Assembly: GCA_965207455.1 (NCBI GenBank)
Contig: CBDBMJ010000001.1
Location: 1,728,001-1,792,000 of the forward strand
Direction of reading: 5' to 3'
Source of the DNA: Bdellovibrionota bacterium
GTDB lineage: Bacteria > Bdellovibrionota > UBA1018 > CAIPTA01 > JAALKR01
DNA: 64,000 nucleotides
Shown: piece by piece, positions 18,522-62,875 of the stretch
Layout of the letters: every line of letters begins with the position of its first letter
Numbering within the stretch: position 1 is the stretch's first letter
Notes under the pieces: model-generated
What the model was told of the DNA's origin: nothing
Databases searched by the model: none
The model's input: the letters and a program-made list of their open reading frames with translations, nothing else
Program-made: the position numbers and the translations under genes

Positions 18522-18911
18522 TTACCACTTAAACCAGTTCCTAATATCCCTCTGCCACGCACAAAGCATGGGTGCTAGGAGGTAGTTATCCATATCCATT
18601 TCACCCCATGCTACGTCGACTACTCGGCAGAATAGGCGGCTGCCTAAGAGGCCGATACGAAATTTTGCATAATAGAAAGTTGCACCTGTGAAGTTTGCGT
18701 AGTGGAGTTTAGCGTTGTTTAGGGTTGCGTTAGTAAGATTTGCGCCGCGGAGGTCGGCGTGATTTAGTTGAGCGTTGTTTAGGTTTGCATCTTTTAGGTT
18801 AGCATTCATGAGGTCTGCGCCGTTCAAGTCGAGAGAGCTCAGGATAGCGCCGCAGAGTTTTGCGAAGGGGACGTGTTTGCCGCTTCTTACCAGGTTGAAG
18901 CTCGTGGCCGC
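18522..18911 (-). pseudogene. 5'-truncated pentapeptide-repeat gene, paralogue of 5118..6161
   Basis: SFNLVRSGKHVPFAKLCGAILSSLDLNGADLMNANL matches TRTIPPAKLCGAKLSGANL; no signal peptide; upstream in-frame TAA lies in the repeat at 18912. Confidence 0.75.
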
Positions 18912-19013
18912 TTACGCTAGGGAGAAGGTTTTCTTTTTTTTGCGACGGAATTCAGGAACACACCTGATTCATAACCTTACTGATTGGATTCCCAACGTTA
19001 GGCGAGAAAGCTC
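18908..19013. repeat. Island spacer repeat, copy 1
   Basis: GCTTACGCTAGGG...TTTTTGCGACGGAATTCAGGAACACACCTGATTCATAACCTTACTGATTGGATTCCCAACGTTAGGCGAGAAAGCT. Confidence 0.85.
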
Positions 19014-19041
19014 ACCCCTTTGAATAAAGGTATTCGATTTT

Positions 19042-20508
19042 TCAGAAAAGACCGACCTTCTTTAAGTTTTCCAATCCTTTTACTGCATCTTCATATCCCT
19101 GCTCTGCTGCTTTTTTATACCAAGAAATTGCTTTCTTATAATTTCCAGAAGTGCCCTCTCCGGTATAATGCATAACGCCTGCATTAAACTGAGCTCGTGC
19201 ATGTCCTTGATCTGCTGATTTCTCAAACCAATAAAGTGCTTTTTTATCGTCTTTTGAAGTACCCTTTCCAGCATGATACATGGTTGCCAAATTAGATTGA
19301 GCTTCTGCATGTCCTTGATCTGCTGATTTCTTGTACCAAGGGAGTGCTTTTTTAGCATTTTTAGAAACTCCCTTTCCCTCAATATACATCGTTCCTAAAT
19401 TATATTGAGAGTTTGCATTTCCTTGTTCTGCTGCTTTCTCATGCCAAGAGAAAGCTTTTTTAACATCTTTGGGAACACCATTTCCTGCATAGTACATAAC
19501 TCCCAAGCTGAACTGAGCCTGTGCATCTCTTTGTTTTGCTGCTTTCTCAAACCAATAAAACGCTTTTTTAGCATCTTGAGAAACGCCATATCCAGCATAA
19601 TACATGAGTCCCACATTAGTTTGGGCTTTCACATGTCCCTGTTTTGCTGCTTTCTCCTGCCAATAAAATGCTTTTTTATTATCTTCAGGACGCAATCTTC
19701 CAGCATAATAAGTAATTCCTGAATTGTATTGAGCTCCTGCATGTCCTTGTTCTGCTGCTTTCTTATACCAATAAAATGCTTTTTCAGTATCTTTAGGAAC
19801 TCCCCTTCCCTCGTCATATATAAATCCTAAATTAAACTGAGATCCCACATGTCCTTGTTCTGCTGCTTTTTTACACCAATAAAATGCTTTCTTATAATTT
19901 TCAGGAGTTCCATCCCCAAAATTATACATAACTTCTAAATTGTATTGAGCTTCTGTATGCCCTTGTTTTGCTGCTTTTTCAAACCAAGGAAGTGCTTTCT
20001 TATAATTTTTAGAAACTCCATCTCCTGTATAATACATAATTCCTAAATTGTATTGAGCCTGTGCATCTCCTTGTTTTGCTGCTTTCTTATACCAATGAAA
20101 TGCTTTTTTAGCATCTTGAGAAGTGCCCGCCCCCTCGTCATACATAATTCCCAGATTATGTTGGGATTTTGTATGCCCTTGTTCTGCCGCCTTCTTATAC
20201 CAATGAAGTGCTTTTTTATCGTCTTTAAAAGTTCCATCTCCGGTATGACACATAACTCCCAGATTAAATTGGGCTTCTGTATGTCCTTGTTCTGCTGCCT
20301 TCTCATACCAATACAGTGCTTTTCTACTATCTCGAGAAACCTCCAATCCGTCGCTGTAGATAAAACCCAAGCGATACTGCGCTTCAGCCTCTCCTTGTTC
20401 TGCTCTTCTTTCATAGCTACTTATGAATTCCATATAATTAGCATTGAATTTAATACCATGAATGAACTTAGCCAATGATGACAAAGAGGACTCAATTTTA
20501 TTCCTCAT
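19042..20508 (-). CDS. Sel1-like repeat protein (~12 repeats), no signal peptide
   Basis: Tandem 36-aa AQYNLG.MY..G.G...D.KKA..WY.KAAEQG units. Confidence 0.93.
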   Translation of the reverse strand: MRNKIESSLSSLAKFIHGIKFNANYMEFISSYERRAEQGEAEAQYRLGFIYSDGLEVSRDSRKALYWYEKAAEQGHTEAQFNLGVMCHTGDGTFKDDKKALHWYKKAAEQGHTKSQHNLGIMYDEGAGTSQDAKKAFHWYKKAAKQGDAQAQYNLGIMYYTGDGVSKNYKKALPWFEKAAKQGHTEAQYNLEVMYNFGDGTPENYKKAFYWCKKAAEQGHVGSQFNLGFIYDEGRGVPKDTEKAFYWYKKAAEQGHAGAQYNSGITYYAGRLRPEDNKKAFYWQEKAAKQGHVKAQTNVGLMYYAGYGVSQDAKKAFYWFEKAAKQRDAQAQFSLGVMYYAGNGVPKDVKKAFSWHEKAAEQGNANSQYNLGTMYIEGKGVSKNAKKALPWYKKSADQGHAEAQSNLATMYHAGKGTSKDDKKALYWFEKSADQGHARAQFNAGVMHYTGEGTSGNYKKAISWYKKAAEQGYEDAVKGLENLKKVGLF

Positions 20509-20806
20509 TTAAAGCTGCCTTCTTTATTTTTCTCAATGATATTAGTGCATCTTCATCTCCTTGTTTTGCCGCCTTCTCAAACCAAAAAAATGCCTTTTCT
20601 ATATCTTTGGGAACACCTTTTTCAGCATCTTTATGGACTCCTACTCCTTCTTGATAAATAACTCCCATGCGATATTGGGCATATTTCTCTCCTTGTTCCG
20701 CTTCTTCTTCATAGCTACTTACAGATCTTATGGGAGGGTCATTAACTTTAACGTGAGGAATAAAGCTAGATAACGACAACCAAGATGATTCAACTTCATT
20801 TTCCAT
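20498..20806 (-). CDS. Short Sel1-like repeat protein (internally deleted)
   Basis: One Sel1 unit with a fused junction GVHKDAEKGVPKDIEK; overlaps the next Sel1 gene by 11 nt. Confidence 0.7.
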   Translation of the reverse strand: MENEVESSWLSLSSFIPHVKVNDPPIRSVSSYEEEAEQGEKYAQYRMGVIYQEGVGVHKDAEKGVPKDIEKAFFWFEKAAKQGDEDALISLRKIKKAALNEE

Positions 20807-20975
20807 TTCAAACTACCTCCTTTAAAAATCAAACGCACTCATATAATTTAATATATCACTCATTAGTATTTCACAACCCTCTGTTCGCATTTTCATCCAT
20901 AATTGGCATGACTAAGCGATTCCATTGCATTATAACTACCAAGGGAATTTGACGGGCGCATTGCGCCGAGGTAAA

Positions 20976-21048
20976 CGTTTTCCTTTTTTTTGCGACGAAG
21001 TTCAGGAACACACCTGTGATTCATAACCTTAATTATTGGATTCCCAAT
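20976..21048. repeat. Island spacer repeat, copy 2
   Basis: TTTTTGCGACGAAGTTCAGGAACACACCTGTGATTCATAACCTTAATTATTGGATTCCCAAT. Confidence 0.85.
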
Positions 21049-21059
21049 CTCTCTCTATT

Positions 21060-21335
21060 TTAAGGGGCGTCTTTCTTTGTGTTTCTCAATGTTCTTACTG
21101 CATCTTCATGTCCTTGTTCTGCTGCCTTCTCATACCAGTAAAGTTCTTTTTCATCATCTGTAAAAGCCTCAGCTCCTTCGCTATAGATACGGCCTAGGCG
21201 ATACTGTGCTTCAACCTCTCCTTGCTCTGCCTTTCTTTCACAGCTATTTATGAATTCCATGTACTTGGCATTGAATTCAGCACCAGAAGGGAGTTTAAAC
21301 AATGACAACCAAGTTGACTCAAATTTATCTTTCAT
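21060..21335 (-). CDS. Single-repeat Sel1-like protein
   Basis: N-terminus homologous to 19042..20508; one Sel1 unit. Confidence 0.7.
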   Translation of the reverse strand: MKDKFESTWLSLFKLPSGAEFNAKYMEFINSCERKAEQGEVEAQYRLGRIYSEGAEAFTDDEKELYWYEKAAEQGHEDAVRTLRNTKKDAP

Positions 21336-21466
21336 TTCAAGCTACCTCCCTTACAAATGAAACGTGCCAAAAGACATCTTCTAACCCCATTTTTATACTG
21401 TAAAACACAACAATTCAATACCCTATCTTTCAACATTTTGCAACCATTTGTTCATATTTCGACCTC

Positions 21467-22354
21467 TTATTTCCTGAGGGCATGAATCACATCCTCGATT
21501 TCCTCTACTCGTACTGCGCCTGCTTTCTCGTATTTTTTAGGCCAGGAGATTGAGGGTTCTTCAAAGCATGAATTTAAAATAAATAATTTTCTTCCCTGCT
21601 GTGTGGCTGCACGGGCCTGAATTAGTGCGCCACTGGTATCGGAGGCTTCAATTATTACAGTGCCTTGAGATATTGCAGACATGGTTGCATTTCTTCTGGG
21701 GAAATTATTCTTTCTCTTTTGAAAAGGTTCATAGCTGTATTTATAAAAAGGAACTTGGCTTATTAGTAGGTGTTCTCTTGATATTAAATTCTGCAAATCT
21801 TTGTTCTCCTTTGGGTAATATTTATTAATGGGAGTTCCAATGACTCCAATGACCTTTCCGCCTTCTGCAATGGCTGTTTCTAGGGCTATGGTATCCACTC
21901 CAGCAGCCAGCCCGGACACAATGGTATATCCATTTTCTACCAGCAGTTTTGTTAATCGTTTTGTTCTTAGCTTTCCTTTATGGCTGCATTTTCTAGACCC
22001 GATGATAGAAACGCAATTATTTTCAAGCAAGTCTATCTCGCCCTTGTAATAGAATAGTTCAGTGGGGTGCTGGGCTTCTCTTAATTTTTTTGGATATTGG
22101 TGGTCGCCGTTGATAGAAATGGAAAAATTATCTTTAAGGCTATTGAGATAATGGGTAACTCTTAATTTCAGTTCCGAATCTATAAAGCCCATCTTGTCTC
22201 TTAGTATTTCAGATGGCCGTGCAGTACCTTTAAAAAGTTTCGACAATTTTCCATCCGTCATGCCCTCTATAGCCCAAAGGGTTTCAAAAGCAATCATTTC
22301 ATCTCTTGGTGAAGCCACATTTTCGAAAATATTATCTGTCTCGCTTTCAATCAT
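21467..22354 (-). CDS. DprA/SMF-like protein (ShosA-type antitoxin), orphan copy
   Basis: YPKKL, IIGSRK, IVSGLAAGVD, FPRRNATMS, IIEASDTSG; near-identical to 61354..62241 but with no PRTase downstream. Confidence 0.85.
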   Translation of the reverse strand: MIESETDNIFENVASPRDEMIAFETLWAIEGMTDGKLSKLFKGTARPSEILRDKMGFIDSELKLRVTHYLNSLKDNFSISINGDHQYPKKLREAQHPTELFYYKGEIDLLENNCVSIIGSRKCSHKGKLRTKRLTKLLVENGYTIVSGLAAGVDTIALETAIAEGGKVIGVIGTPINKYYPKENKDLQNLISREHLLISQVPFYKYSYEPFQKRKNNFPRRNATMSAISQGTVIIEASDTSGALIQARAATQQGRKLFILNSCFEEPSISWPKKYEKAGAVRVEEIEDVIHALRK

Positions 22355-22393
22355 TATATTTCTCTAACTACTGGACTTTGCCGATGTAAATTT

Positions 22394-22459
22394 CTAACAT
22401 TTTGAGCAATCACTATTCTTTGCTTTCTTCTTAGTTCCTGCTGCACCTCTTTTTGCCAT
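22394..22459 (-). pseudogene. Truncated copy of the Lys-rich small ORF
   Basis: MAKRGAAGTKKKAKNSDCSKC* matches the start and the KKKAKNSD block of 25072..25263. Confidence 0.6.
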
Positions 22460-22542
22460 AACCCCCTTTCCCTTCTATCTAGTTATTGTAAAATAAAATA
22501 TAAGCACTGACAATGCAAGCCCGATAATGCTTGCTGATCACA

Positions 22543-22600
22543 GAGGATCATGGCAACAGATTTCAAGGAGCACACCAATGATTCATAACATTAATTATTG
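22543..22600. repeat. Island spacer repeat, copy 3 (degenerate)
   Basis: GAGGATCATGGCAACAGATTTCAAGGAGCACACCAATGATTCATAACATTAATTATTG. Confidence 0.75.
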
Positions 22601-22605
22601 AACTA

Positions 22606-23388
22606 CTAGCGCAAGCCCCTCAATGTTCTTACTGCTTCTTCATGTCCCTGATCTGCTGCTTTCTTGCACCAAAAAAGTGCCTTTTTAGTATCTCTAGAAA
22701 CTCCCTCTCCAAGAAAATACATAAATCCAAGGCTGTATTGAGCCTTTGCATATCCTTGTTTTGCTGCTTTCCTATACCAAGAGATTGCTTTCTTATAATT
22801 TTTAGAGGTGCCCTCTCCTGTACAGTACATACTCCCTATATTAAATTGAGCTCCCGGATGTTCTTGTTTTGCTGCTTTTTCAAACCAAAAAACTGCCTTT
22901 TTAAAATCTTTAGAAGTTCCCTCCCCCATACAATACATACGTCCCAGAGTGTTTTGAGCATCTGCACTCCCTTGTTCTGCTGATTTTTCACACCAATAGA
23001 ACGACTTCTTATTATTTTTAGAAGTCCCCTCTCCGGCATAATACATAAATCCTAAATTAAATTGAGATTCTCCATTCCCTTGTTCTGCTGATTTTTTATA
23101 CCAACAGAGCGCTTTCTTATAATTTTTAGGAGTGCCCTCACCGGCATAATACATAGATCCCATATTGAATTGAGCTCCTGCATGTCCTTTTTTCGCTGCC
23201 GCCGCACTCAAAAAAAATGCTTTCTTATAATCTTTAGTAATGCCATCACCAACATAGCACATGCACGCCAAGGTGTATTGATCGTCTATTTCCTCTTGTT
23301 CCAATTTTTTTATAGAATCCATATCATCGGCATTGGATTTAGTTTTTGGAAAAAGTTCTACTACGTTCGATTCAGACTTATCTTTCAT
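22606..23388 (-). CDS. Sel1-like repeat protein (~6 repeats)
   Basis: Tandem Sel1 units; no signal peptide. Confidence 0.92.
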   Translation of the reverse strand: MKDKSESNVVELFPKTKSNADDMDSIKKLEQEEIDDQYTLACMCYVGDGITKDYKKAFFLSAAAAKKGHAGAQFNMGSMYYAGEGTPKNYKKALCWYKKSAEQGNGESQFNLGFMYYAGEGTSKNNKKSFYWCEKSAEQGSADAQNTLGRMYCMGEGTSKDFKKAVFWFEKAAKQEHPGAQFNIGSMYCTGEGTSKNYKKAISWYRKAAKQGYAKAQYSLGFMYFLGEGVSRDTKKALFWCKKAADQGHEEAVRTLRGLR

Positions 23389-23542
23389 TTCAAGCCACCT
23401 TCCTTACAAACGAAATACGCCAAAAGACCTCTTCTAACTGCCCATTTTTGCTATAAAATACAATAATTTAATACACTATCTTCCAGCATTTTGCAACCCT
23501 TCACTCATAATTTCACCCCCTTATTCCCAATCTTCCTTTATT

Positions 23543-24814
23543 TTAAGGAAACTGTTTCTTTATGTCTCTCAATGCTCTTATTGCATATTTATGTCCGCAA
23601 TCTGCTGCTTTTTTATACCAATAAAATGCTTTCTGATAATTTTTAGAAGTGCCCATTCCAATATCATACATAATGCCTACCTGAAATTGAGCCTCTGCAT
23701 GCTCTTGTTCTGCTGCTTTCTCGTACCAGAAAAATGCTTTTTCAGCATCCTTAGCAACTCCTTCTCCGGCATGATACATAGATCCTACATTAAATTGAGA
23801 AACCGCATATCCTTGTTTTGCTGCTTTCTTATACCAAGAAAACGATTTTTTAGCATCTTTAGAAACTCCCCTTCCCACATCATACATAACTCCTAAGTTA
23901 TGCTGAGCTATTCTATGTCCTTGTTCTGCTGCTTTCTTCTGCCAATAAAATGCTTTTTTATCGTCTCTAAAAGCACTTTCTTTCTCAGCATACATAATTC
24001 CTAAATTGTACTGAACTTCTTCAGACCCTTGCTTTGCTGCTTTCTCATGCCAATAAAATGCCTTTTTATCGTCTTGCAGGACGCCTTTTCCAGCATAGTA
24101 CATAAGTCCTAAGTTAAATTGAGCTTTTTCATGCTCTTGTTCTGCTGCTTTCTTCTGCCAATAAAATGCTTTTTCATCATCTCTAAAAACCCTCTCTCCC
24201 TCATTATACATAATTCCTAAACTGTATTGAGCTTCTGCATACCCTTGTTCGGCTGCTTTCTTCTGCCAATAAAATGCTTTTTTATCATCCCTAAAAACAC
24301 CCTCTCCCTCACCATGCATAACTCCTAAACTGTATTGAGCTTCTGCATGTTCTTGTTCGGCTGCTTTCTCATACCAATAAAATGCTTTTTTATCGTCTTT
24401 CAAGCCCCTTTCTTTATCGTCTTTCAGGACCCTTTCTTGATCATAATACATAGATCCTAAATTAAATTGGGCCTGTACATCTTCTTGTTTTGCTGCCTTC
24501 TTATACCAAGAGATTGCTTTTCTATCATCTTGAGAAACTCCTTCTCCCAGACTATACATAATTCCTAAGTTATACTGAGCTTTTTTGTGTCCTTGTTCTG
24601 CCGCTTTCTCACACCAATAAAATGCTTTTTTATTATTTTTGGAAATGCCCAATCCTCTGTTATAGATAAAACCCAAGTAGTACTGTGCATTCACCTCTCC
24701 TCGCTTTGCCTTTCTTTCATAGCTACCTATAAATTCAATATAGCGAGGCTTGAGTTCAATGTCCGGAATAATCTTCGCCAATGGGGGTCCAGGCAACTCA
24801 ATTTCATTTTTCAT
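23543..24814 (-). CDS. Sel1-like repeat protein (~10 repeats)
   Basis: Tandem Sel1 units, including an 8-aa internal duplication ERVLKDDK/ERGLKDDK. Confidence 0.93.
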   Translation of the reverse strand: MKNEIELPGPPLAKIIPDIELKPRYIEFIGSYERKAKRGEVNAQYYLGFIYNRGLGISKNNKKAFYWCEKAAEQGHKKAQYNLGIMYSLGEGVSQDDRKAISWYKKAAKQEDVQAQFNLGSMYYDQERVLKDDKERGLKDDKKAFYWYEKAAEQEHAEAQYSLGVMHGEGEGVFRDDKKAFYWQKKAAEQGYAEAQYSLGIMYNEGERVFRDDEKAFYWQKKAAEQEHEKAQFNLGLMYYAGKGVLQDDKKAFYWHEKAAKQGSEEVQYNLGIMYAEKESAFRDDKKAFYWQKKAAEQGHRIAQHNLGVMYDVGRGVSKDAKKSFSWYKKAAKQGYAVSQFNVGSMYHAGEGVAKDAEKAFFWYEKAAEQEHAEAQFQVGIMYDIGMGTSKNYQKAFYWYKKAADCGHKYAIRALRDIKKQFP

Positions 24815-25071
24815 TTCAAACTCTACCTCCCTTAAAAATCAAACGCACCCACGCGTCGAAAAGTACTTCCTAATCACCCATTTTCATTATGAAACATGAC
24901 AATTTAATACATTATCTTTCAACATTCTGCAACCCATTATTCCTATTTTGATCTCTTCTACTCGTACCGCACTTTTATAGCTTCTAGCACCTCATTGAAA
25001 TCACTGTCTTTTATCCCATAGCTTCCATCAGAGTACATGCCTTTTCTTCTAGGTAATCTTCTGAAAGCCGA

Positions 25072-25263
25072 CTAGCCGCCGTTTTTAAATCTTATGGCTC
25101 TTCTTGATGCAATAGAAATAGAAAAAGGAACGGTAAGCTTAATATTTGACCAGTCACTATTCTTTGCTTTCTTCTTGGCGACCAATGGAGCAGGTTTCTG
25201 CTTACTCCCAGTTCCTGCTGTGGAAATCCTTTTTTTCGTTCCTGCCGCACCTCTTTTTGCCAT
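25072..25263 (-). CDS. Lys-rich small protein, family copy A
   Basis: MAKRGAAGTKK...DWSNIKLTVPFSISIASRRAIRFKNGG; AGGAG RBS; frame conserved in four copies. Confidence 0.65.
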   Translation of the reverse strand: MAKRGAAGTKKRISTAGTGSKQKPAPLVAKKKAKNSDWSNIKLTVPFSISIASRRAIRFKNGG

Positions 25264-25303
25264 AACACTCCTTCTTTTTTAAGTTAAACCCATATCACCA
25301 CAA

Positions 25304-27097
25304 TTAAAAAACAGGGCAATTAAAAAGTCTCCCTTCATCTCCTTCGTCTGTCAGTTTTCGAATCACTTCTGTTTCAGGAAAGTGAATTTTCTTGCCATCT
25401 CTGTCTAAGGGAAGATCGGAGTCAATGGCAGTTAAAATGTATTGTATGCCGTAGTTTTCTGAATACTCTCTAATAGATTTAAGCAGAGCTATCTTTTTTC
25501 TATCATCTAAGCCTTCCAGCACCCCATCATGGTATATAAAATGATAAAAATTTGATTTGCTATAATATTTCTGTACTGCCATATCGAAGAATACACACAA
25601 CAGTTTCTTATAGCTTGTCCCATCACCTTCTGATGTTGAGGACGTTGGATCTTCTTGTTTTGTGTAGTCGGCATGAAAATCAAAATTGTTCTGCTTATTA
25701 ATGTTAACATAAACCAGCCCGCTAACTTCTAAAACTGCGTTAATCAGAGAATTAAAACTTGAACGAATCTTTGTGAACGTTGGATTATCCTTGCTGTTTT
25801 CTTCCCGAACATCTTTAACCTTCTTGTCAAGATCTTTTTTTGCTATATCTAATTCTGCCAACCTATCGTCTATTTTCTTGAAGTTTTCCAAGTCTTTTTC
25901 TAAGTGAATCAATTTTTCTTTTGCAAAAACCAACTCGCCCTGCATTTTTTTGTATTTTTTAAAAGAATCTTTTTCTCTAAGAACATCGAGTTTTTTAATT
26001 TTTTCTTGATTAAACTTCTCTAACTGTTCCTTGAGCGTATCAAGTTTTTTGTTAATTCTGCTTTTTTCTTTTTTAAGCCTTTCTCTTCTGTCTTTTGTTA
26101 GCCTGTTGTTAAAGTTCTCTAAATCTTTATATTCTTTAACCAAAGGCTCTTTAAAGTGAAGGTTGGCTTCATTAAATATTTTCTGAACATTACCTATTTT
26201 AAAAAATATTTCAGCTTTCAAAGATTTTGATATTTCGCCAAGGTCATGATTTAAATTATATATTTCGTTATTTATATAAGATATGTTAGCTTCAATTTCC
26301 GGAAGTTCCTTTTCACCAAGGTCTAAATCCTTTTCTTTGAAGTCAAAGGCGTCCAGCTTTTTTTCTAGTTCAAGAACTGCTTGTCTCTTAACCTCTGTCC
26401 TTGCTCTAATCTTGTCGAAACTCTCTCCCGACAATGTCAGTTCTTTTCTAATAGTTACGAGCTCTGTTTCTTTTTCTTTTACCAGCTTGTCGCAGTTATA
26501 TTTATTTTCAATGACTTCGGATGAAAACCCCAGTATTTTCCCAACATAAGGCTTCCAATCAACGCCTTTACTGGCAGAAAATTTGCTAATATGGAAGACG
26601 TTATTAAAATCTTTCTGGCTTCTTAAAAAATATGTTATACCCTTTCGATAGTTATATGGTTTTATAACAGATAAACCTATCAAACCATCGAGGAAATCCA
26701 TTGCCTTTTCATGCGGAAGCTCATACTGATTCCAGTCTTTCTCGCTAAGATGGCAATAATTTTGCTGAGGCTCGCCATGCTCCTTAAAGGAAATTTTAGT
26801 ATTATTTTTAATGCTTCTTTTTATGGTCACAAAGGAGTTCTTGGGCAACTCAAGCTCCAAGTAAAACTCAATATCCTGTAATTCATCTGGGAGCTTCTTT
26901 GTAAAATTTTCTTTGCTCACTCTTTTCAATAGGCAGTAGTCGATTACATCGATCAAAAGGCTTTTACCTAGGTTATGAGAGTCCATGTCAGTTGCATTAA
27001 GGTTCGTTGATTTGCCCAAAATAATATTAAGGCCGTGGTTGAAGGCAATCGGCTTAAAGTAGTTATCAAGGTTAGTATATAGTCTTTTTAGTCTCAT
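25304..27097 (-). CDS. Lamassu/ABC-3C SMC-like ATPase (DUF2326, LmuB-like)
   Basis: HNLGKS Walker A, long coiled coil, SEGDGTSYKK signature, FIYHDG, QYILT. Confidence 0.87.
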   Translation of the reverse strand: MRLKRLYTNLDNYFKPIAFNHGLNIILGKSTNLNATDMDSHNLGKSLLIDVIDYCLLKRVSKENFTKKLPDELQDIEFYLELELPKNSFVTIKRSIKNNTKISFKEHGEPQQNYCHLSEKDWNQYELPHEKAMDFLDGLIGLSVIKPYNYRKGITYFLRSQKDFNNVFHISKFSASKGVDWKPYVGKILGFSSEVIENKYNCDKLVKEKETELVTIRKELTLSGESFDKIRARTEVKRQAVLELEKKLDAFDFKEKDLDLGEKELPEIEANISYINNEIYNLNHDLGEISKSLKAEIFFKIGNVQKIFNEANLHFKEPLVKEYKDLENFNNRLTKDRRERLKKEKSRINKKLDTLKEQLEKFNQEKIKKLDVLREKDSFKKYKKMQGELVFAKEKLIHLEKDLENFKKIDDRLAELDIAKKDLDKKVKDVREENSKDNPTFTKIRSSFNSLINAVLEVSGLVYVNINKQNNFDFHADYTKQEDPTSSTSEGDGTSYKKLLCVFFDMAVQKYYSKSNFYHFIYHDGVLEGLDDRKKIALLKSIREYSENYGIQYILTAIDSDLPLDRDGKKIHFPETEVIRKLTDEGDEGRLFNCPVF

Positions 27098-27107
27098 TGC
27101 TTGCTCA

Positions 27108-27359
27108 TTACTTAATCAAAAAAAAGGTGTCGTTTTTATCCAAATAATCAATCTTTCCAAGTCCGTACAACATCGTAAGAGCTGCTAAAAAAACATCGTC
27201 CATATTTTGTCCTATTTTGTCTTCAATGAAGTCTCGAAGTATTGGCAGCTTAACGATCTTGTTTCTAAACATATACTTTAGGGTCAATCCAGATACATAA
27301 AGCACAGACTTATCTAAATCCATATATTTTTTAGGTAGAATCATTGTTGCATTTTCCAC
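27108..27359 (-). CDS. ABC-3C middle component (LmuC-like)
   Basis: MILPKKY...ALTMLYGLGKIDY; lies between effector and ATPase. Confidence 0.82.
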   Translation of the reverse strand: MENATMILPKKYMDLDKSVLYVSGLTLKYMFRNKIVKLPILRDFIEDKIGQNMDDVFLAALTMLYGLGKIDYLDKNDTFFLIK

Positions 27360-27370
27360 TTTGTTTTCCT

Positions 27371-28312
27371 TTATTCCTTTTTTCCGATATCACAATTAAA
27401 ATATATAAAGTGAATGAAAACCTTTAATAGCCGCTTGGCCACACCTTTTTGTTGAAGCTTGGAATAGGATTCTTGGTAAATCGTCTCCAACACATCATCA
27501 AACGTATTAAAGTCACCTCTTCTGTTAATTATCATCCCCTTAAAATCGAGCGCGGTATCACTATAGAGAATCTCTGACCTGCCGTGCTTCGGATCCTTCA
27601 GAAAATCCATAATGCGCTGAAAGTGCTTTTCAGAATCTTCTTTAATGTATTTGCAGTACTCATCAGAAAGACCATTGATTTCATTCTTCTTGTCGATATT
27701 AACATAAAGAAAGTCCTTTTTGTTTTTCCCTTTATCTTCAGGGCTTTTTACGGGTATAAAATCTCTAAATTTAGAAATAACCCTTTCAAGATCTTCGGGG
27801 AACACGTTCAATGGGGTGCGTGGTTGATCGAAGCCAAACTCTTCATGAAGTTCTCTGTGAGAATCTAAATGTAAATGCAGCTTTTCCATTCCCCAAATTG
27901 TTACCGATGAAAGGCTGGGAACTGCAGATTGAATTTTATCTTTTATTTTCTTCTCATGCCCCGCCGAAAGCGTTCTGTTTGTTAAAATAAAATAATGCTC
28001 AAGCTCATCACTGTCTACGAGCCTTTTTATCTTACTTATTTCTTTATCCAGAATGGTCTTAAAAAATTGTCCCTCAGAGCAAGACGCGTTTGCCCTGGCA
28101 GTGTACTTTGCTTGCATAACAAACTTGCCTGAAAGTGGAGCGGCACTCGAGGGCAGATCCTTAGCGGTCCCGTTGAAAATTCCATCTCTACCGCCATCTT
28201 TCCCAGAAGCGAAGTTTACAAACCCCTCACCAAGAACATTTACGCAAATTCTTGAGCACAATTTTTCAAAGCTCGAGTAATCAAGCTCATATATCCTATA
28301 GTTTCTTTTCAT
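27371..28312 (-). CDS. Lamassu effector: Mrr-like restriction endonuclease domain plus ABC-3C C-terminal domain (LmuA-like)
   Basis: FEKLC...GKDGGRDG...VMQAK, LTNR, C-terminal FIHFIYFNCDIG; probable ATG at 28312. Confidence 0.83.
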   Translation of the reverse strand: MKRNYRIYELDYSSFEKLCSRICVNVLGEGFVNFASGKDGGRDGIFNGTAKDLPSSAAPLSGKFVMQAKYTARANASCSEGQFFKTILDKEISKIKRLVDSDELEHYFILTNRTLSAGHEKKIKDKIQSAVPSLSSVTIWGMEKLHLHLDSHRELHEEFGFDQPRTPLNVFPEDLERVISKFRDFIPVKSPEDKGKNKKDFLYVNIDKKNEINGLSDEYCKYIKEDSEKHFQRIMDFLKDPKHGRSEILYSDTALDFKGMIINRRGDFNTFDDVLETIYQESYSKLQQKGVAKRLLKVFIHFIYFNCDIGKKE

Positions 28313-28554
28313 GCTCACCTTACATTCGGCTTTTTGTACACCGACCGCCCACACCTGCGCGTTAATTTTCCTCTTTCAAAAATGACAATTGATTAGGCTT
28401 ACCGCACTTTTATGAAAAATCCAAGTTAAATATCACACTTCCCAGCCTTGACTTCCCTGGCTACCTGGTGCGGCAAATTCTTGCGGAGCAGGGGAATCCG
28501 AGGGAACGGAGTGTCGGACGATGGGGTACTCTGGGGAGTGGTGATAGTTTTGGT

Positions 28555-28779
28555 TTAGTAGTCAAATTTATAAACGCACCAGTTATCGTTTTCGTTCCCC
28601 TCGCTACCGGTGGCAGGGTCACATTCATACTGTTGAGCAAGAATATTCTCTGCTCCTTGAGCGACGGTTTTTGATTTATATTTGCCTAAGATGACCCAAT
28701 TTTTAAGGTTTGGGTGTTGTTTTTCCCAGTATTCTTTGCGACCTTTAGGATCAGTTGTCATTCCAATTCTGCAAGCCAT
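28555..28779 (-). CDS. 74-aa GIY-YIG-like mini-protein, copy 1
   Basis: CRIGMTTDPKGRK...AQGAEN; paralogue at 55747..55971. Confidence 0.6.
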   Translation of the reverse strand: MACRIGMTTDPKGRKEYWEKQHPNLKNWVILGKYKSKTVAQGAENILAQQYECDPATGSEGNENDNWCVYKFDY

Positions 28780-28850
28780 ATTTACTTACTCTTTTTTACT
28801 AATTGCCCTAGAGATAATGTGGCTTGATTCAAGATTCTGCACATATAGTA

Positions 28851-29657
28851 TCATCCATCATATTTTACCTCTAGCATATCCTTGGCAGCAGCAGTTGTGC
28901 AGCCAAAAAAGGCGCTCTTCGTTTCTTCTTTTAAAGATTCAATCTCTGTTAACAGCTCCTCTTCATTCAAATCATAAAAATCATTATTTTGAAATGTTCT
29001 AATACCTGTAGTCTCAACAGGAGTCAATATTTGATCATCAAGAAGTTGAGCTCTAAAATTTAAGCTTAACTTTGTACTCTCTTCTTTGCCCTTAAAATTA
29101 AATTGCGCTGTAATACCAGAAACAGGTATTTGATCACCATTAATTTTCACACTACAGTTCAGATCAAAATAATGCCCGAGATTTTCAGATTTAGGAATAA
29201 AAAACATATTTACATATCTAAAAACTACTCGTCGGACTTTGAAAAGATTATTTTCATCTATTATCCTTGATACATCAATAATATCTTTTTCTAAGTCACT
29301 TTTATAGGATTTATACGGTTTATCGGAGATATCATGGAGGGTATGAAAGGCTAGAAAATGATTTCCTAGCCTTAAAACCTTTCTATTACCCTGAGATTTT
29401 TCCCAAGATATTTCTCTGTCCCAAAATGGTTCAAACTTCCTTTTATCGCCTGTTCCTATAGGAACCAATAACCTTGAAGTGGTTTTAAATGGAATTCTCT
29501 TTTTTCTGAAAAATTTTTTTTCTATATTAAAAGAAAGAGATCCTATCTTGTCATGTAAAGCCCGTTCACTTGCTTCACTGCTAGGCTCTCCTTCAAGAGT
29601 TGCCCAGACTTCTGCTAAATTAGACTTGGCACATTTATTGACTCTACTCACATTCAT
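28851..29657 (-). CDS. TIGR04255-family-like protein
   Basis: LAFH......Y..Y..., RRVVFRYVNMFFIP, C-terminal E...AFFGCTT pattern. Confidence 0.6.
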   Translation of the reverse strand: MNVSRVNKCAKSNLAEVWATLEGEPSSEASERALHDKIGSLSFNIEKKFFRKKRIPFKTTSRLLVPIGTGDKRKFEPFWDREISWEKSQGNRKVLRLGNHFLAFHTLHDISDKPYKSYKSDLEKDIIDVSRIIDENNLFKVRRVVFRYVNMFFIPKSENLGHYFDLNCSVKINGDQIPVSGITAQFNFKGKEESTKLSLNFRAQLLDDQILTPVETTGIRTFQNNDFYDLNEEELLTEIESLKEETKSAFFGCTTAAAKDMLEVKYDG

Positions 29658-29704
29658 ACCCTCTAAATTTTAGTATCAAGCTAAAATTAATCTTACGAAA
29701 GCAG

Positions 29705-30285: not shown

Positions 30286-30352
30286 AGTTTTCCTTTTTTT
30301 TGCGACGGAATTCAGGAACACATCGACGACGACTACTGCGATTTAGGATTGT
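30286..30352. repeat. Island spacer repeat, copy 4 (short)
   Basis: GTTTTCCTTTTTTTTGCGACGGAATTCAGGAACACATCGACGACGAC; abuts the ATPase stop at 30353. Confidence 0.8.
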
Positions 30353-49906: not shown

Positions 49907-49923
49907 TGTCCGATAGCATGAAA

Positions 49924-51640: not shown

Positions 51641-52389
51641 GCAATCATTATCAAGAGCTATTGAAAGAACTTAAATTAAGTGGAATGGAGGAATCCATTG
51701 AATACAGGATAGAGGAAGCAACAGAGAGCAATTTAGATTTTAATGAATTTATTTGTTTGCTCTTAGAGGACGAAAAGCTCTACCGAAAAAATCGCCGATC
51801 TGCAAGTCTGAGAAAAAAGGCAAGATTTAATAATAATGCTGCACTAGAAGAATTTAATGTTTATTTAGAAAGAGGAATCACCCGATCGATGATTAAAAAA
51901 CTGGCAACCCTTAACTTTATGAGGGAAGGAGAAAATATTATATTTATTGGTGGCACTGGGACAGGCAAAAGCTACCTTGCCCAGGCATTAGGGCATAAGA
52001 GCTGTGCCCATGGCTCTGAGGCTCTCTATTTGCCCGTTAATGTGCTTTTTAAGCGCATTCAAGAGGCAGAGGTTAACGGAAGCTACCTTAGGTTACTTGA
52101 ACGCATGAAAAAGGCTAAGCTAATCATACTAGATGACTTTGGACTTAGGAACTACTCCCACAAGGAAGCACTGGCACTATATGACCTGCTGGAAGACTCC
52201 TACAGAAAGCGCTCAATGGTCATTACTTCTCAAATTAAACCTAAAGGCTGGCAAAACTTGTTTGAAGATGCCGTTATCGCAGAAGCTATAATTGATAGGA
52301 TAACGTCCTGTGCCCATACCATTGAGATCACCGGGCCATCTTACCGAAAGAAGCATAGCCCCAAAGAAAGGATTGATTATAGGAAATAG
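51637..52389 (+). CDS. istB: IS21 helper ATPase IstB
   Basis: GGTGTGKSYLA, LIILDDFG, ITSQ, AIIDRI, GPSYR. Confidence 0.94.
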   Translation: MSNHYQELLKELKLSGMEESIEYRIEEATESNLDFNEFICLLLEDEKLYRKNRRSASLRKKARFNNNAALEEFNVYLERGITRSMIKKLATLNFMREGENIIFIGGTGTGKSYLAQALGHKSCAHGSEALYLPVNVLFKRIQEAEVNGSYLRLLERMKKAKLIILDDFGLRNYSHKEALALYDLLEDSYRKRSMVITSQIKPKGWQNLFEDAVIAEAIIDRITSCAHTIEITGPSYRKKHSPKERIDYRK

Positions 52390-54523: not shown

Positions 54524-55373
54524 AATTATAAGAATACCTTTCTTGTAGATTAAAATTTTTCAGAAATTAATAAATATCTTTCTATCCAAATATTTTTATT
54601 TACTGAACGTTTGGTTTCATTAATGCTCGTTGTATCCATAGTATCGCCAATCAGCTCAACACAATGAGGGGTGAGAGTACTACCTTATATCACTGAACAG
54701 GAAGTAATGCAAAAAAATTATAGCCCCTACAAAAACTTACTCTCCCAATCTTAAGACGATTTTTCTGCCTTAAATATATTTCATTTTCTAAGTGGGAAGG
54801 AAATGAGCCTCTGCGAAAGAGCGGAGCGCACGAATGTGCAGTATGAAAACTAGAGCTAACATCGCACTAGCGCCATATATGAAACTCTGAGTGGTGCTGT
54901 AACTTTATTTCATACCTTTAAAACAGCGCCAAGACCAATCCCGGCCTCCAGCCCCGCCTCCTTTACGCAGCAATCCCAGCGGCAGCATTAGCAGCCTCAG
55001 CATCACCAATCCCGTCCCGGTCTCCAGCCCCTCGCTCCCTTTGCGCAGCGACTCTATCGGTATAACTACACAGGGAAAATGTCGGCACAGGTGCGTCAGA
55101 AGAGGTGTGTTTGATTTCTAGTAAAGTGGGGGTTTTCAGGGCAGTGTGTACAGTTATTTTCTATCTCTGGGGAAGGCTATGTTCTGCCTCTAGCGGTCTC
55201 TTTTCTTTTTTGAGGGTTACGGGGGGTGTGGGTATCTTTTTAAGGTGGGGGGGTGTGTTTACGTTAGGAGATACAGCACGGCTGGTCTCTCTTGCAGTTG
55301 GGTTACATTGTTTTATTGATTGGGTTTGGGGCAGGGGTTTTTCTTTAGGTGGATGGAGTTCTAGTTCTCATGA

Positions 55374-55744
55374 GGCTCTCCGGGTCATTTCTTATTTGGT
55401 TCCTGAGGATCGTTCCGACAGAGTTCAAGGAACACATCTCCGCTTCTTTCCTATAAACGTACAGGGTCTGTTTTCGTTCCCCTCTCCGACGAGGACTGTT
55501 TTATAGCTTCTTAAGATTTCCTAGGTGAGTTTTCACACAGGTAAGGTACTTTGTTCTATTGTTTTTTTACTTCATAAAATTTTCATTCCTCTTACCGACC
55601 CTTTCAGATCATTTCTTGTTTGGCTCCTGAGAATCATTCCGACACTTCCCAAGAACACACCTCCGCTTCTTTCCTGATTAGGAGTTAAGCGTTTAGCGTA
55701 CGAGGTTTGTTTTGGTCCCTTCGACGACGACGACTGTTTTTACG
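55374..55744. repeat. Island spacer repeat, copy 10 (two tandem units, period ~230 nt)
   Basis: Cores at ~55382 and ~55608, each followed by CGCTTCTTTCCT...CGAC modules. Confidence 0.88.
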
Positions 55745-55746: not shown

Positions 55747-55971
55747 TTAGTATTCAAATTTATAAACATACCATATCTCGTTTTCATCCCCACCACCACC
55801 AGCAGCAGAAATACATCCATGCTGTTGAGCAAGGACATTCTCTGCTGCTTGAGCGACGACTTTTGATTCAAAGTAGCCTAGGATGGTCCAATTTTTAAGG
55901 TTTGGGTACTGTTTTTCCCAGTATTCTTTGCGACCTTCAGGATCAGTTGTCATGCCTACTTTACAAGCCAA
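55747..55971 (-). CDS. 74-aa GIY-YIG-like mini-protein, copy 2 (TTG start)
   Basis: CKVGMTTDPEGRKEYWEKQYPNLKNW...AQAAEN; colinear with 28555..28779. Confidence 0.6.
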   Translation of the reverse strand: MACKVGMTTDPEGRKEYWEKQYPNLKNWTILGYFESKVVAQAAENVLAQQHGCISAAGGGGDENEIWYVYKFEY

Positions 55972-56035
55972 GTTCAGTCATTTCCCTTCTACTTAGATGA
56001 TAGGGCGTAGCTTAAATTTGTCAAGGATGTCAGCT

Positions 56036-56199
56036 TTCTCGCTCCGACCTTTCACAAAGACAAAGTTACTTCTTCTCACTGATAGCCCTAAGGGCGCTTG
56101 TTTGTTCTTGTTTGGGTCCTGAGAATCCTTCCGACATACCTCAAGGAACACACCGACGATTCATAACCTTACTTATTGGATTCCCGCTGTAACCTTCCT
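56036..56199. repeat. Island spacer repeat, copy 11
   Basis: CTCGCTCCGACCTTTCACAAAGACAAAG module plus core TTGGGTCCTGAGAATCCTTCCGACA...GGATTCCCGCTGTAA. Confidence 0.88.
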
Positions 56200-56306
56200 T
56201 TTATTTTATTGATGGAAACAGGTAAATCCACTAATATAAAATCAGAATATGAAGAAATCGAATTTTTTAACTAAAGGATTAAATACTTTTTGTCGACAGG
56301 CATAAC

Positions 56307-60135: not shown

Positions 60136-60338
60136 ACAAACCAGCCCCTCAAGTCAACAGAGCGCAGGATAGTGCTATAGAGTTTTGCGGATGGGATGTA
60201 TATGCTGTTGGTTACGAGATTGAAGTGTTTTTGTGAGTAGTAGTCTTTTTCAGTGGTTTGGAGTTTGCTAGAAGCTGTTAGGGGGCTTAGGAACAGTGGT
60301 GTAACGCTGGTGGTGACTATTGATTTTTTATTTTTCAT
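60129..60338 (-). pseudogene. 5' stub of a pentapeptide-repeat family gene
   Basis: MKNKK...EKDYYSQKHFNLVTNSIYIPSAKLYSTILRSVDLRG aligns with EIEDCYSQEHYEKVTRTIPPAKLCG (5118) and FNLVRSGKHVPFAKLCG (18.9 kb). Confidence 0.65.
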
Positions 60339-60504
60339 GGTTCCCCTCTCTATTGCCAGCATCACTCCTTATTAACGCACCAAATCTTAAAAGTAAAGAG
60401 ATCCTTGCGGAGGCATGTATTGCGCCCCCTCCGATCAGAAAAATCCTTTGATTTCAGGTATATGTGTTCTCATAAAGGAAAGCAAGCTTGTTGAGGCTCC
60501 CTGT

Positions 60505-60702
60505 CCGCTTACGCTAGAGAGAGCATTTCCTTTTTTTTGCGACGGAATAGAAGGAGAAAAGCCGTAAGATTATTTAACCTCTCCATCTCTGGATTGTTTA
60601 GCCACTCTCCTCTTGCGCTCGGAGGATCATGGCGACAGACTTCAGGAACACATCGACGATTCAGAACCTTACTTATTGGATTCCCAATGTAATTCTCCCT
60701 CC
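60505..60702. repeat. Island spacer repeat, copy 12
   Basis: GCTTACGCTAGAG...TTTTTGCGACGGAAT...GAGGATCATGGCGACAGACTTCAGGAACACATCGACGATTCAGAACCTTACTTATTGGATTCCCAAT. Confidence 0.85.
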
Positions 60703-60719: not shown

Positions 60720-61370
60720 TTAGTCTGGGAACATTTCTTCTATGGAAAGTTTAGGCCGTACACTCAAAGCCCAAAACACACCATAAACTTTTGTTGAAGG
60801 ACATTTCTCATTTACAAGCTTTTGAAATGCATCGAAATGAGAACCATCCGTTAGCACATCATCAATAACAATAATTTCTCTGGGAACTCCATTAGTAAAT
60901 CCGTTCCACTTATAATTTCTATAGAGATCCGCAGGCTCTCTAGAACCACCTTCGCTTGAAGCAGAATCTACACTTTCTTTATTTGAGATAGGCACTTCAA
61001 TAATGACATTAGAATTTATTCTTCTTAGCTCCCTTAATACATCATTAAGCCTAGAGTCATATTTAGGATGTCCCGGTATTTTAGATGTAGGAATTACTGC
61101 AACTGCGATTCTCCTTGAGAGTAAGCCTGAAAGTTCTTTTGCAAATTTTTGTATTGCTTCAATTTTATATTTCCATTCTGGTGTGTTTATTTTTGATGGA
61201 ACTTTTTTAAAATTCAATATCAATGAATTTGTTCGTGAAGCTTGGTACCCACCTCCCGGGATATATTCTCTAGCAACATAGCAGATATCTTCTTTTTTTA
61301 AATGACTGGGAAATCTCTGAAATTTATCAATTCTTCTCCAACGGGCCGGCTCTTCATCTCTTGAGGACAC
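60720..61370 (-). CDS. Phosphoribosyltransferase-like toxin (ShosT-type)
   Basis: NSLILNFKK, IPTSK, PRPP-binding IIVIDDVLTDGSHF; start overlaps the DprA-like gene. Confidence 0.83.
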   Translation of the reverse strand: MSSRDEEPARWRRIDKFQRFPSHLKKEDICYVAREYIPGGGYQASRTNSLILNFKKVPSKINTPEWKYKIEAIQKFAKELSGLLSRRIAVAVIPTSKIPGHPKYDSRLNDVLRELRRINSNVIIEVPISNKESVDSASSEGGSREPADLYRNYKWNGFTNGVPREIIVIDDVLTDGSHFDAFQKLVNEKCPSTKVYGVFWALSVRPKLSIEEMFPD

Positions 61371-62241
61371 GAATCACATCCTCAATTTCTTCTACCCTTA
61401 TTGCGCCTTCTTTTTCATATTGTTTAGGCCAAGAAATTGATGATTTTTCAAAGCATGAATTTAAAATAAATAATTTTCTTCCCTGTTGCATGGCCGCGCG
61501 GGCTTGCGTTAGCGTGCCACTGGTATCAGAGGCTTCAATTATTACAGTGCCTTGAGATATTGCAGACATGGTTGCATTTCTTCTGGGAAAGTTATTCTTT
61601 CTGCTCTGAAATGGCTCATGATAATATCTATAAAATGGGACTTGGCTTATTAATAAATGTTCTCTTGATATTTTATCCTGCAAGTCTCTGTTCTCTTTTG
61701 GATAGTATTTATTAATGGGCGTTCCAATGACTCCAATGACTTTTCCATTTTCTTTAATGGCTGTTTCTAGGGCTACAGTATCCACTCCAGTTGCTAAACC
61801 AGATACAATGGTATATCTATTTTCTACCAGTAGTTTTGTTAATCGTCTTGTTCTTAATTTTCCTTCATTAGTACATTTTCTAGACCCAACGATGGAAATA
61901 CAATTATTTTCAAGCAAGGCGGCATCACCTTTGTAATAGAATAATTCAATTGGATGCTTGGCTTCTCTCAATTTTTTGGGATATTGATGATCGCCATTAA
62001 TAGAAACTGAAAAATCAACTTTAAGATTATCTAGATAATTAGTAACTATCGATTTCAGTTCTGAATCTATAAAGCCCATCTTGTCTCTTAGTATTTCAGA
62101 GGGCAGCGCAGTACCATTAAAAAGTTTTGAAAGTTTTCCATCTGTCATACCTTCTGTAGCCCAAAGGGTTTCAAAAGCAATCATTTCATCTCTTGGTGAA
62201 ATTACATTCTTGAAAATATTATCTGTCTCGCTTTTAATCAT
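61354..62241 (-). CDS. DprA/SMF-like antitoxin (ShosA-type)
   Basis: IVGSRK, IVSGLATGVD, FPRRNATMS, IIEASDTSGT; coupled to the PRTase gene. Confidence 0.87.
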   Translation of the reverse strand: MIKSETDNIFKNVISPRDEMIAFETLWATEGMTDGKLSKLFNGTALPSEILRDKMGFIDSELKSIVTNYLDNLKVDFSVSINGDHQYPKKLREAKHPIELFYYKGDAALLENNCISIVGSRKCTNEGKLRTRRLTKLLVENRYTIVSGLATGVDTVALETAIKENGKVIGVIGTPINKYYPKENRDLQDKISREHLLISQVPFYRYYHEPFQSRKNNFPRRNATMSAISQGTVIIEASDTSGTLTQARAAMQQGRKLFILNSCFEKSSISWPKQYEKEGAIRVEEIEDVIRVLKR

Positions 62242-62591
62242 TATATTTTTTATAATTCTATTTATTAGATTTTGCCACCTTTATCAACGCATCTGACCTT
62301 AAAAGTAAAGAGTTAGCTCTGAATATCGAAAATGGGGCGCCCCAACATCAGAAAGCCACCTTAACTTCAGCCCGTCGCATCAATCTTGTTTTGTCGATTT
62401 TTCGCTCAAGAGGGAAGAGATGCACAAAAGGTTCTTGCTATCTTCAGTGGTTAGAGTGATTCGAGTTTCTATGAGGTTGATAGGTAGAGGGGTAAGGTTG
62501 TGGGAGGTTGTTTGAGGGCAGTTCAAGTACTTGTTACAGTTGCGTTTTCGTTTGTATGTTTTAGACCCCATCGAAATTTATAGAGTCCTTG

Positions 62592-62790
62592 TCGCTTACG
62601 CTAGGGGGAGCATTTAAATTTTCTTTGGCACGAAGTTCTCCGATTAATAGAGGCATCATTTGTATCTCGGACACTCACCGATATTTACATTTCCCTCAGC
62701 GCAATTGCTACAGAAGATCATAGCGACAACTTCAAGAAACACACCGACGATTCATAACCTTACTTATTGAATTACCGATGTAACTTTCTC
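62592..62790. repeat. Island spacer repeat, copy 13
   Basis: GCTTACGCTAGGGGGAGCATTT...AAGATCATAGCGACAACTTCAAGAAACACACCGACGATTCATAACCTTACTTATTG. Confidence 0.82.
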
Positions 62791-62796
62791 TCTTTT

Positions 62797-62875
62797 TTAA
62801 GGAGACTGTCTATTTTTTGGAAGAATATCATTCACTTCTTCTGTAAATTTCATCGATCGCTTTTCAGCATCAATA
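62797..62875 (-). pseudogene. 3' relic of a second MazG-like gene
   Basis: Encodes IDAEKRSMKFTEEVNDILPKNRQSP* versus IDAEKRTMEFTKEVNDILPKNKQSL* at 38048. Confidence 0.8.

Follow-up and report, generated by a model that had tools for sequence, protein, structure and literature searches.

What process leaves the same non-coding repeat, always in one orientation, at intervals through an island of anti-phage genes? The question is raised by a 64,000-nucleotide stretch of DNA from a Bdellovibrionota bacterium (the window; G000:C1:1728001-1792000), part of a 2.38-Mb genome assembly of three contigs that is 94.7% complete and to which all genome-wide negatives given below apply. Positions are counted from the first letter of the window; W denotes the C1 position minus 1,728,000, so that values above 64000 lie outside the window. 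We put at roughly 60% the probability that the repeats were left behind as foreign DNA, with anti-phage genes making up much of it, was added serially to the 3′ end of a single host gene, a sulfatase-family gene at the end of the array. On this reading the array is an unusually long, integrase-free case of a known route of island building; judged by three tested features, it is not an integron.

A Co-oriented Repeat Family Confined to One Island

The repeat centers on a core of ~45 bp. Through BLAST, fuzzy and hidden Markov model (HMM) searches we identified 24 cores (E 9e-13 to 0.003 with a core HMM trained on the same 24 cores that it recovers), and joining those less than 400 nt apart gave 17 modules over W18.9k-85.7k, a 67-kb defense island, all on the + strand. 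Within the window there are 17 cores in 13 modules, and the 13 co-oriented copies reported by a first-pass annotation of this DNA were all present at their places. Scanning the genome with the core HMM produced no further match below E 3, confirming that the copies are limited to the defense island. The cores have a mean identity of 66% (75% among those bearing a tail; pairwise range, 36-100%), and the core is kept in all subfamilies although the flanks vary. A right-hand tail is present on 14 of the 24 cores and missing from 10. Six modules carry two or three cores; the spacing of the double cores described previously is 121-241 nt rather than ~230 nt. The island has a GC content of 36.2% (vs. 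40.2%), and 41 of its 49 listed open reading frames (ORFs) are on the minus strand.

The repeats had been said to end within ~30 nt of the stop codon of a minus-strand gene. Such a stop (ORF of at least 91 aa) lies 0-49 nt from the tail end in 8 of the 14 tail-bearing cores, against a null mean of 1.7 and a value not reached in any of 100,000 simulations, so that the adjacency is well above chance; the stop at 19042 is 49 nt away rather than ~30 nt. Three other stops claimed as adjacent proved to be those of a ~55-aa ORF (33543), a small gene termed G (55747) and a MazG stub (62797). A TTA occurs at a constant tail offset in five copies (34.9k, 37.0k, 48.6k, 56.1k, and W68.7k), where two ORFs unrelated to each other use it as their stop codon. 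The string proposed to form a bulged hairpin does exist at 48569-48599, but none of 14 folds (seven copies, both strands) beat its shuffles (z -0.79 to +1.73), and RNAalifold gave no pairs on 15 copies, leaving no sign of a conserved structure. An Rfam scan of the window gave no matches.

The Repeats Contain the End of a Sulfatase-Family Gene

The island extends 22 kb past the window, up to a sulfatase-family gene that is intact (W85953-88103, minus strand) and behind which are a ~60-bp intergenic stretch, the 74-aa gene G (W85667-85891) and a degenerate core. Copies of the end of this gene, which lies outside the window and did not feature in the first-pass annotation, occur within the repeats themselves. 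Eight are clear (36.7k, 48.3k, 56.1k, 64.2k, 68.3k, 73.9k, 74.06k, and 83.2k; 21-33 of 36 bases identical), and a genome-wide search with the sulfatase end found no match below E 3.9 other than these and the gene. An HMM built solely from the decayed sequence left of seven cores matched the sulfatase at W85979-86050 with a score equaled by none of 3000 random segments. In addition, seven of the 24 cores have a sulfatase 12-mer (W86039-86050) at offset -35/-36 relative to the core anchor, where 0.012 would be expected per 110 nt, and six further cores have a clear sulfatase-end copy at most 150 nt away, bringing the cores with a target copy to 13 of 24. The duplicated portion is the last ~100 bp of the gene. 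The sulfatase-end copy at W64246 stands alone. Outside the window, the remainder of the array together with its anchor gene spans W64243-88103 (G000:C1:1792243-1816103).

Tail-less cores are followed on the right by a relic of the G 3′ end (score reached by 2 of 3000 random segments). Whole-length comparison of the spacer with G gave z values of only 0.8-3.4. The core and tail had no match in G, the intergenic stretch or the sulfatase, and a derivation of the core from any of these was rejected; an element arm would be expected to lack such matches. A full junction, followed in gene direction, therefore consists of cargo stop, tail, core, sulfatase end, intergenic stretch and G. Once the module next to the gene is excluded, similarity to the gene end drops with distance from it across the other 16 modules (Spearman rho 0.79, p 0.0003).

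Of the modules in the window, module 11 (55970-56201) is the fullest attP-like junction, with intergenic stretch, a clear sulfatase-end copy at ~56059, core and tail. Module 7 (36610-37079) has three cores, a clear sulfatase-end copy at ~36711, a G-end relic, a decayed sulfatase end and a tail; module 9 (48190-48653) has a relic of the G start, a sulfatase-end copy at ~48287, two cores and a tail, with a MazG stub on the right; and module 10 (55368-55740) has two tail-less cores, each with a decayed sulfatase end, and a G-end relic. A decayed sulfatase end, core and tail make up module 6 (34891-35027) and module 8 (37790-38042), the latter beside the MazG stop. Module 1 (18894-19003), of a distal, divergent type, has a core and tail and lies left of a Sel1 gene stop; core and tail are likewise found in module 2 (20968-21057), in module 3 (22540-22605; short tail, abutting the Sel1 stop at 22606), in module 4 (30286-30345; truncated tail, beside the stop of an ABC-three-component (ABC-3C)/Lamassu-like SMC gene) and in module 5 (33447-33529), which is beside the stop of the repeated ~55-aa lysine-rich ORF. 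Module 12 (60490-60701) is beside the ShosT stop, module 13 (62587-62792) has a MazG stub on its right, and modules 14-17 are outside the window (~W68241-68708, W73758-74084, W83154-83539, and W85620-85660), all on the + strand. Modules 1 and 12 are each trailed by pentapeptide relics.

Proposed Tandem Accretion at the Sulfatase 3′ End

The reading that we favor, at the probability given above, is tandem accretion of integrase-less islets resembling cis-mobilizable elements (CIMEs) at the sulfatase 3′ end, followed by decay and recombination. Islets would have joined repeatedly at one target, located within the gene ~100 bp from its 3′ end, each bringing its own copy of the sulfatase end and so restoring the gene, much as a long duplication restores the C-terminus of the protein gene icd upon integration of e14 or phi21. 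An islet would have ended in an intergenic stretch and G behind its gene-end copy and, at the opposite end, in the ~45-bp core, whereby an internal junction between two islets would be an attP-like hybrid. The newest islets would sit beside the gene, with older ones shifted outward and decaying. A site-specific recombinase, acting transiently in trans or since lost, would have driven the founding events at least. Our observations are of the make-up, orientation, confinement and polarity of the junctions and of a search in which no recombinase turned up; from these we infer this enzyme, as well as the order of events and any present activity. Later, homologous recombination between repeats may have multiplied and mixed the junctions. 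Recombination between copies had already been proposed as a possibility and probably did shuffle the array: the mosaic modules, the multiple cores, the stubs of cargo genes shared between junctions (below) and a 486-bp pair at W68k/83k that is 97% identical bear this out, indicating that junctions were also copied after they had formed.

Several points weigh against this reading. Eleven of the 24 cores have no recognizable target copy, and the fixed-offset junctions, the tail-bearing ones of which are 83-97% alike, may share one ancestor and so would not represent seven independent integrations. The p-value for polarity is optimistically small since the modules are related to one another, and a copy of G at 28.5k that is 89% identical to the proximal G breaks a simple gradient. 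No integrase or integrase relic was found in the array by blastx with the proteins of the genome, and none of the recombinase-bearing regions compared has a core or arm in common with it (two Xer-like loci being compared at their 3′ ends only). That every islet should lack an integrase goes beyond the tandems of two to three elements at protein genes in the published accounts available to us in part (PMC7563491). Finally, no strain with an empty site or with other cargo was present among the sequences searched.

Search for a Recombinase and for Related Arrays

The genome has nine Phage_integrase matches, which we classed from sequence as XerC/XerD-like proteins and island integrases, and one large serine recombinase at a tRNA-Ala gene, all of them located outside the array. 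No integron integrase was detected (TIGR02249, none above cut-off, best 82 bits vs. 265), and neither IS110, Y1 transposase nor reverse transcriptase (RT) had a match in the genome. The serine recombinase was considered because a 14-mer of the tail occurs just upstream of it and 139 nt of the array (30143-30281) are 91% identical, inverted, to a flank of the tRNA-Ala serine recombinase element (C1:105270-105408), but the tail model matched none of 29 relatives' loci (24 with tRNA/tmRNA) and the link was dropped.

We also considered whether the core is the 3′ stump of a tyrosine integrase, since ~10 of 16 copies could be aligned to an integrase end in another genome of the phylum (G336). A frameshift-aware profile built on 29 relatives lent this no support (p 0.24-0.87); of 3000 random segments, 21 equaled the DNA score, a figure uncorrected for ~20 comparisons. 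Modules that move by XerC/D recombination (pdif, IMEX) have a 28-bp dif-like site with a fixed 6-bp spacer that resembles the host dif. The tail has CATAA-N5/6-TTAT-like halves; however, the spacer length is variable and the 10 tail-less cores have no such halves, and we did not adopt a dif-like Xer site. The array is ~1 Mb from the terminus inferred from skew. A promoter or terminator role was rejected as there were no consistent matches at the cores and counts were near those of shuffles (two regions).

No relative of the array was encountered. Array DNA had no match in 126 genomes of the class; the repeat gave a single weak 29-nt match, in an unrelated context, in 60 relatives, three pattern matches with unrelated flanks in metagenomes, and none in viral contigs or phages. 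Sulfatase orthologs in 30 relatives were not close (best 25-32% identity), and the literature searched, with queries not keyed to the word sulfatase, held no report of an array anchored at such a gene.

Support for the Assembly

Only one of the listed sequencing runs (X1) contains array DNA, none of those listed being an RNA run with it, and it is feasible that this is the source sample. Contigs from X1 mapped to W66201-86200, a region that takes in 4 of the 17 modules, none of them within the window, covered 30 of 30 bins at a depth of ~14 in unique parts, which supports the assembly there, and seven of eight listed pieces had no differences from it. Thirteen joints were listed, nine with unknown intervening sequence, and there was no clean join at any core. 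Of six listed in-between strings, four were looked up and all four were absent from the assembly, implying that variant versions of segments, at a depth of 6-9, exist in the sample, whether in co-occurring strains, relatives or unassembled DNA. At W79.7k-82.1k a contig of depth 3.6 bypasses IS66 with eight shared letters, possibly an empty-site subpopulation. A second run (X2) had next to no coverage of W66201-86200.

Alternative Explanations

The alternative that survives best, although we regard it as doubtful, dispenses with a site-specific enzyme: insertion with long target duplication would have been followed by RecA-type unequal recombination (an accordion), the core being an inherited foreign flank that served as a homology anchor. 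The region beyond the sulfatase speaks for it. To the right of the gene is a pilin locus where, ~3 kb past the sulfatase start, an insert is flanked by two copies of a permease-pilD stretch of 1319 bp (96.9% identity). Together with four co-oriented copies of a post-pilD motif, this duplication forms a second, mirror-image mini-array (W90976-104120) with no Phage_integrase or serine recombinase match nearby. In a relative of the same family (G001) pilD is followed directly by a homolog of the W98969 gene, i.e., the empty state at the family level. As the pilD duplication fits insertion with long target duplication, the enzyme-free route stays open at the sulfatase also, where the mosaic modules, the 97% identical 486-bp pair, the common MazG and Sel1 stubs and the variable lengths of the target copies are what such a route would produce. 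Against it, RecA works poorly on copies that are 60-85% alike. Insertions of this type were described without mobile elements, often across start or stop codons, although the duplications are long and variable (Furuta et al., 2010; PMC2853133), whereas in this array there are 24 occurrences of a core foreign to the host, seven of which adjoin the target at one offset.

It is unlikely, in our estimation, that the array reflects an active stacking system at a protein gene 3′ end, in which a recombinase acting in trans would insert and reshuffle core-bearing, integrase-free defense cassettes and leave strand-biased C>T/A>G hypermutation at junctions that is mirrored across the pilin locus.

The junctions do show a compositional bias. 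A 150-nt patch with (G+T-A-C)/N of at least 0.25 lies on the left of 8 of 17 modules, as compared to 12% of positions chosen at random, both within the island and genome-wide. The bias is G+T-rich on the + strand left of the pilin locus and A+C-rich, its mirror image, in the pilin operon and right-hand array; patches of correlated GC and TA skew are located at 16550-17500, 18650-18900, 37600-37950, 55100-55450, 60150-60350, 62400-62650, and W89000-99850. Relative to the gene-proximal sequence, eight copies together carry 80 C>T/A>G versus 39 T>C/G>A changes (p 3e-5), a count that leaves out one near-duplicate copy and assumes the direction of change. For an insertion sequence (IS)-end relic, with two outside copies as outgroups, the corresponding ratio was 22:9 in one array copy and 16:12 in the other.

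We think it improbable that the array is an integron-analogous cassette system, in which a trans-acting recombinase would take up genes, cut precisely at the stop codon, as cassettes that bear the core and would shuffle these between cores. The stop adjacency, the TTA at one tail offset in five copies, the retention of the core across subfamilies and the co-orientation of the ORFs would all suit such a system. Integron attC sites have paired RYYYAAC and GTTRRRY boxes and fold into a conserved single-stranded DNA hairpin with extrahelical bases, and the integrase IntI is not required for clusters of attC sites lacking integron integrases (CALIN). The repeats were correctly described as non-attC: a RYYYAAC/GTTRRRY pair within 40-150 nt on either strand was found in 0 of 24 cores. 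Conserved structure is lacking, multi-gene operons with long upstream regions are present, and IntI, IS110, Y1 transposase and RT were not found in the genome. The cargo is unrelated only in part, as one MazG 3′ stub is common to the copies at 38.0k, 48.6k, 62.7k, and W68.7k (z 3.9-27.7) and a Sel1 3′ end to those at 18.9k and 21.0k; such inherited stubs show that the junctions are not independent precise captures. Furthermore, a 329-aa cargo gene ends 14 residues short of its paralog and MazG extends ~10 residues past both plasmid homologs inspected (2/2), which suggests, from three weak and distant comparisons, that joins are imprecise and may borrow a stop. We do not retain a hairpin-type site or a new system of precise cassette capture as the default: a repeat made of a target-gene end and an element end is covered by tandem accretion.

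An ordinary miniature inverted-repeat transposable element (MITE), repetitive extragenic palindrome (REP) or IS-end repeat enriched in the island, or an assembly artefact, is very improbable and largely refuted, as 24 of 24 cores occur on one strand in 67 kb with none elsewhere, there is no significant fold, core identity is spread over 36-100% and X1 contigs cover W66201-86200 fully, even though IS-end (55016-55345, W67753) and tRNA-linked (33170-33256) repeats do occur in the array. MITE and REP repeats are dispersed in both orientations and have terminal inverted repeats or a palindrome.

Cargo and Other Features of the Island

The cargo includes two ABC-3C/Lamassu-like systems, TIR-Nmad2-MazG, a cyclic-oligonucleotide-based antiphage signaling system (CBASS), ShosTA, a lone ShosA, AbiEi, Sel1 genes, IS21 and IS66; the CBASS, AbiEi and IS21 had escaped the first-pass annotation. 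On the minus strand are the Sel1-repeat genes with the lone ShosA/DprA gene at 21467-22354 (19042-24814), the two ABC-3C systems (25304-33047; Lamassu-like, DUF2326 with CTD12 or CTD10), the genes for MazG-C, Nmad2, a ThsB-like TIR and a 5-hmdU kinase helical domain (38048-41689), the CBASS (42708-47558; two tandem cyclase-family genes of 330 and 323 aa, E1-E2, JAB and a Cap15-like 2TM effector) and ShosT-ShosA (60720-62241). The IS21 (IstA/IstB; 50111-52389) within the array is on the + strand, with 24-nt tandem repeats at its left end (49900-50125) and a relic of these at 36413-36460.

Other repeats were noted. The ~55-aa lysine-rich ORF has five copies, one of them partial, which are confined to the island within this genome and have conserved flanks (25068-25349, 29701-30067, 33540-33904, 36050-36395, and 22401-22518). 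The sequences at 55016-55345 and W67753 match an IS end located elsewhere, and 33170-33256 is one copy of a repeat seen beside several tRNA genes, with no tRNA near here. To the left of the island are genes for a large protein with ~280-nt repeats (8859-12218) and a pentapeptide-repeat protein (5118-6161).

Gene G

In the window G has two copies on the minus strand, one without a neighboring core (28555-28779; 85% aa identity to the gene-proximal copy) and one with a changed start codon (55747-55977). The family to which it belongs is conserved, with 375 representatives at E<=0.001, and weakly GIY-YIG-like: 13 and 11 of 70 members matched T5orf172 and MUG113, respectively, at E<=0.01, and in structure searches the I-TevI domain (Z 4.7, with rmsd 3.0 and 56 aligned) and dodecins tied as the best VIA match. 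Foldseek gave no match at E<=0.001, nor did a PDB sequence search with the G alignment. The family has an N-terminal YIG-like strand, a C-terminal strand with a conserved W-x-V-Y-x-F and two conserved cysteines, and G is possibly a circularly permuted minimal GIY-YIG domain.

Homologs were present in 2 of 400 other genomes of the phylum. In G336 a tyrosine integrase close to tRNA-Ala precedes the homolog by 260 nt, and in G268 the homologs are within islands that we classed from their ORFs as conjugative-type, leading us to regard G as typical luggage of integrative elements. It also occurs at one Chloroflexota locus, where the array architecture is absent, and was not found in the viral contigs or plasmids searched. 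In G336, the intact integrase near tRNA-Ala also has an integrase 3′-end relic repeated 10 kb downstream of it (C1:123742-123835 and 134096-134188), which again points to tandem accretion.

Comparison with Known Systems

The closest parallels are islands built at a single target. In Dehalococcoides, more than a dozen repeats of the ssrA target occur in 100 kb, and 15 islands have no integration module (McMurdie et al., 2011; PMC3146451). As here, the target 3′ ends are co-oriented and a non-host motif beside each marks the insertion point, whereas there 20 bp of tmRNA is duplicated and here ~100 bp of a protein gene. The sulfatase array differs further in that all of its islets lack an integration module, that the search for a cognate recombinase found none and that the copies are strongly decayed and mosaic. 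Accretion of CIMEs and microCIMEs with ICEs (integrative conjugative elements) and with IMEs (integrative mobilizable elements) is described at the 3′ ends of fda, rpsI, and rpmG (PMC5704250, PMC7563491). These are likewise integrase-less tandems at protein gene ends with the most decayed elements farthest from the gene, the same order as we observed, and the gene-less microCIMEs of 130-220 bp resemble the core-to-core units of 121-241 nt in this array. However, the streptococcal tandems reported in the accessible text have two to three elements beside an ICE or IME (PMC7563491), unlike the 17 modules here, which have neither. The tycheposon islands of Prochlorococcus are similarly seeded at a target gene, with old elements displaced outward, partial target copies scattered and most islands currently holding no element, but there the targets are tRNA genes and integrases were identified (bioRxiv 10.1101/2020.12.28.424599), neither of which was observed here.

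Other systems match in fewer respects. Insertions in which a long target duplication arises (Furuta et al., 2010, citing Nobusato et al., 2000; PMC2853133) involve defense genes and a duplication of more than 30 bp; this class, with no mobile-element genes and repeats across start or stop codons, suits the neighboring pilD duplication well, while its ends are variable and no recurring arm is described in the portion of the paper at hand. Sedentary chromosomal integrons and CALIN anti-phage arrays share the defense-rich layout of co-oriented genes each with a 3′ site (bioRxiv 10.1101/2024.07.02.601686), unlike which the present array has no attC boxes, folded site or IntI, has long operons and includes a host gene end in the site. 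The array presents three features of accretion, namely target copies, a fixed arm (possibly from one ancestral junction) and a polarity of decay with one exception, and is mostly explained by a known process, being unusual in its size, its lack of an integrase and its junction-linked skew.

The island is an example of 67 kb of dense defense genes built serially, if our reading holds, at a single host gene where no integrase can now be seen, and bears on how integrase-free defense islands arise; it also supplies a defined attB/attP-like pair for weighing recombinases against RecA. The junction skew, judged by composition, resembles that of GRINS (genetic repeats showing intense nucleotide skews), which are repeats of >500 bp and >80% identity with mean absolute GC and TA skew >0.15 (Nivina et al., 2021; PMC8256042). 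Common to both are correlated GC and TA skews in repeats, one-strand C>T and A>G changes and abrupt changes of sign; GRINS, as far as the consulted part of that report goes, are mainly in protein genes, whereas for the most part the patches of this array are non-coding and 150-550 bp long, with most patches and repeats under 500 bp. The mirror-image skew at these junctions may offer a non-coding, polarized setting for a GRINS-type mutational process.

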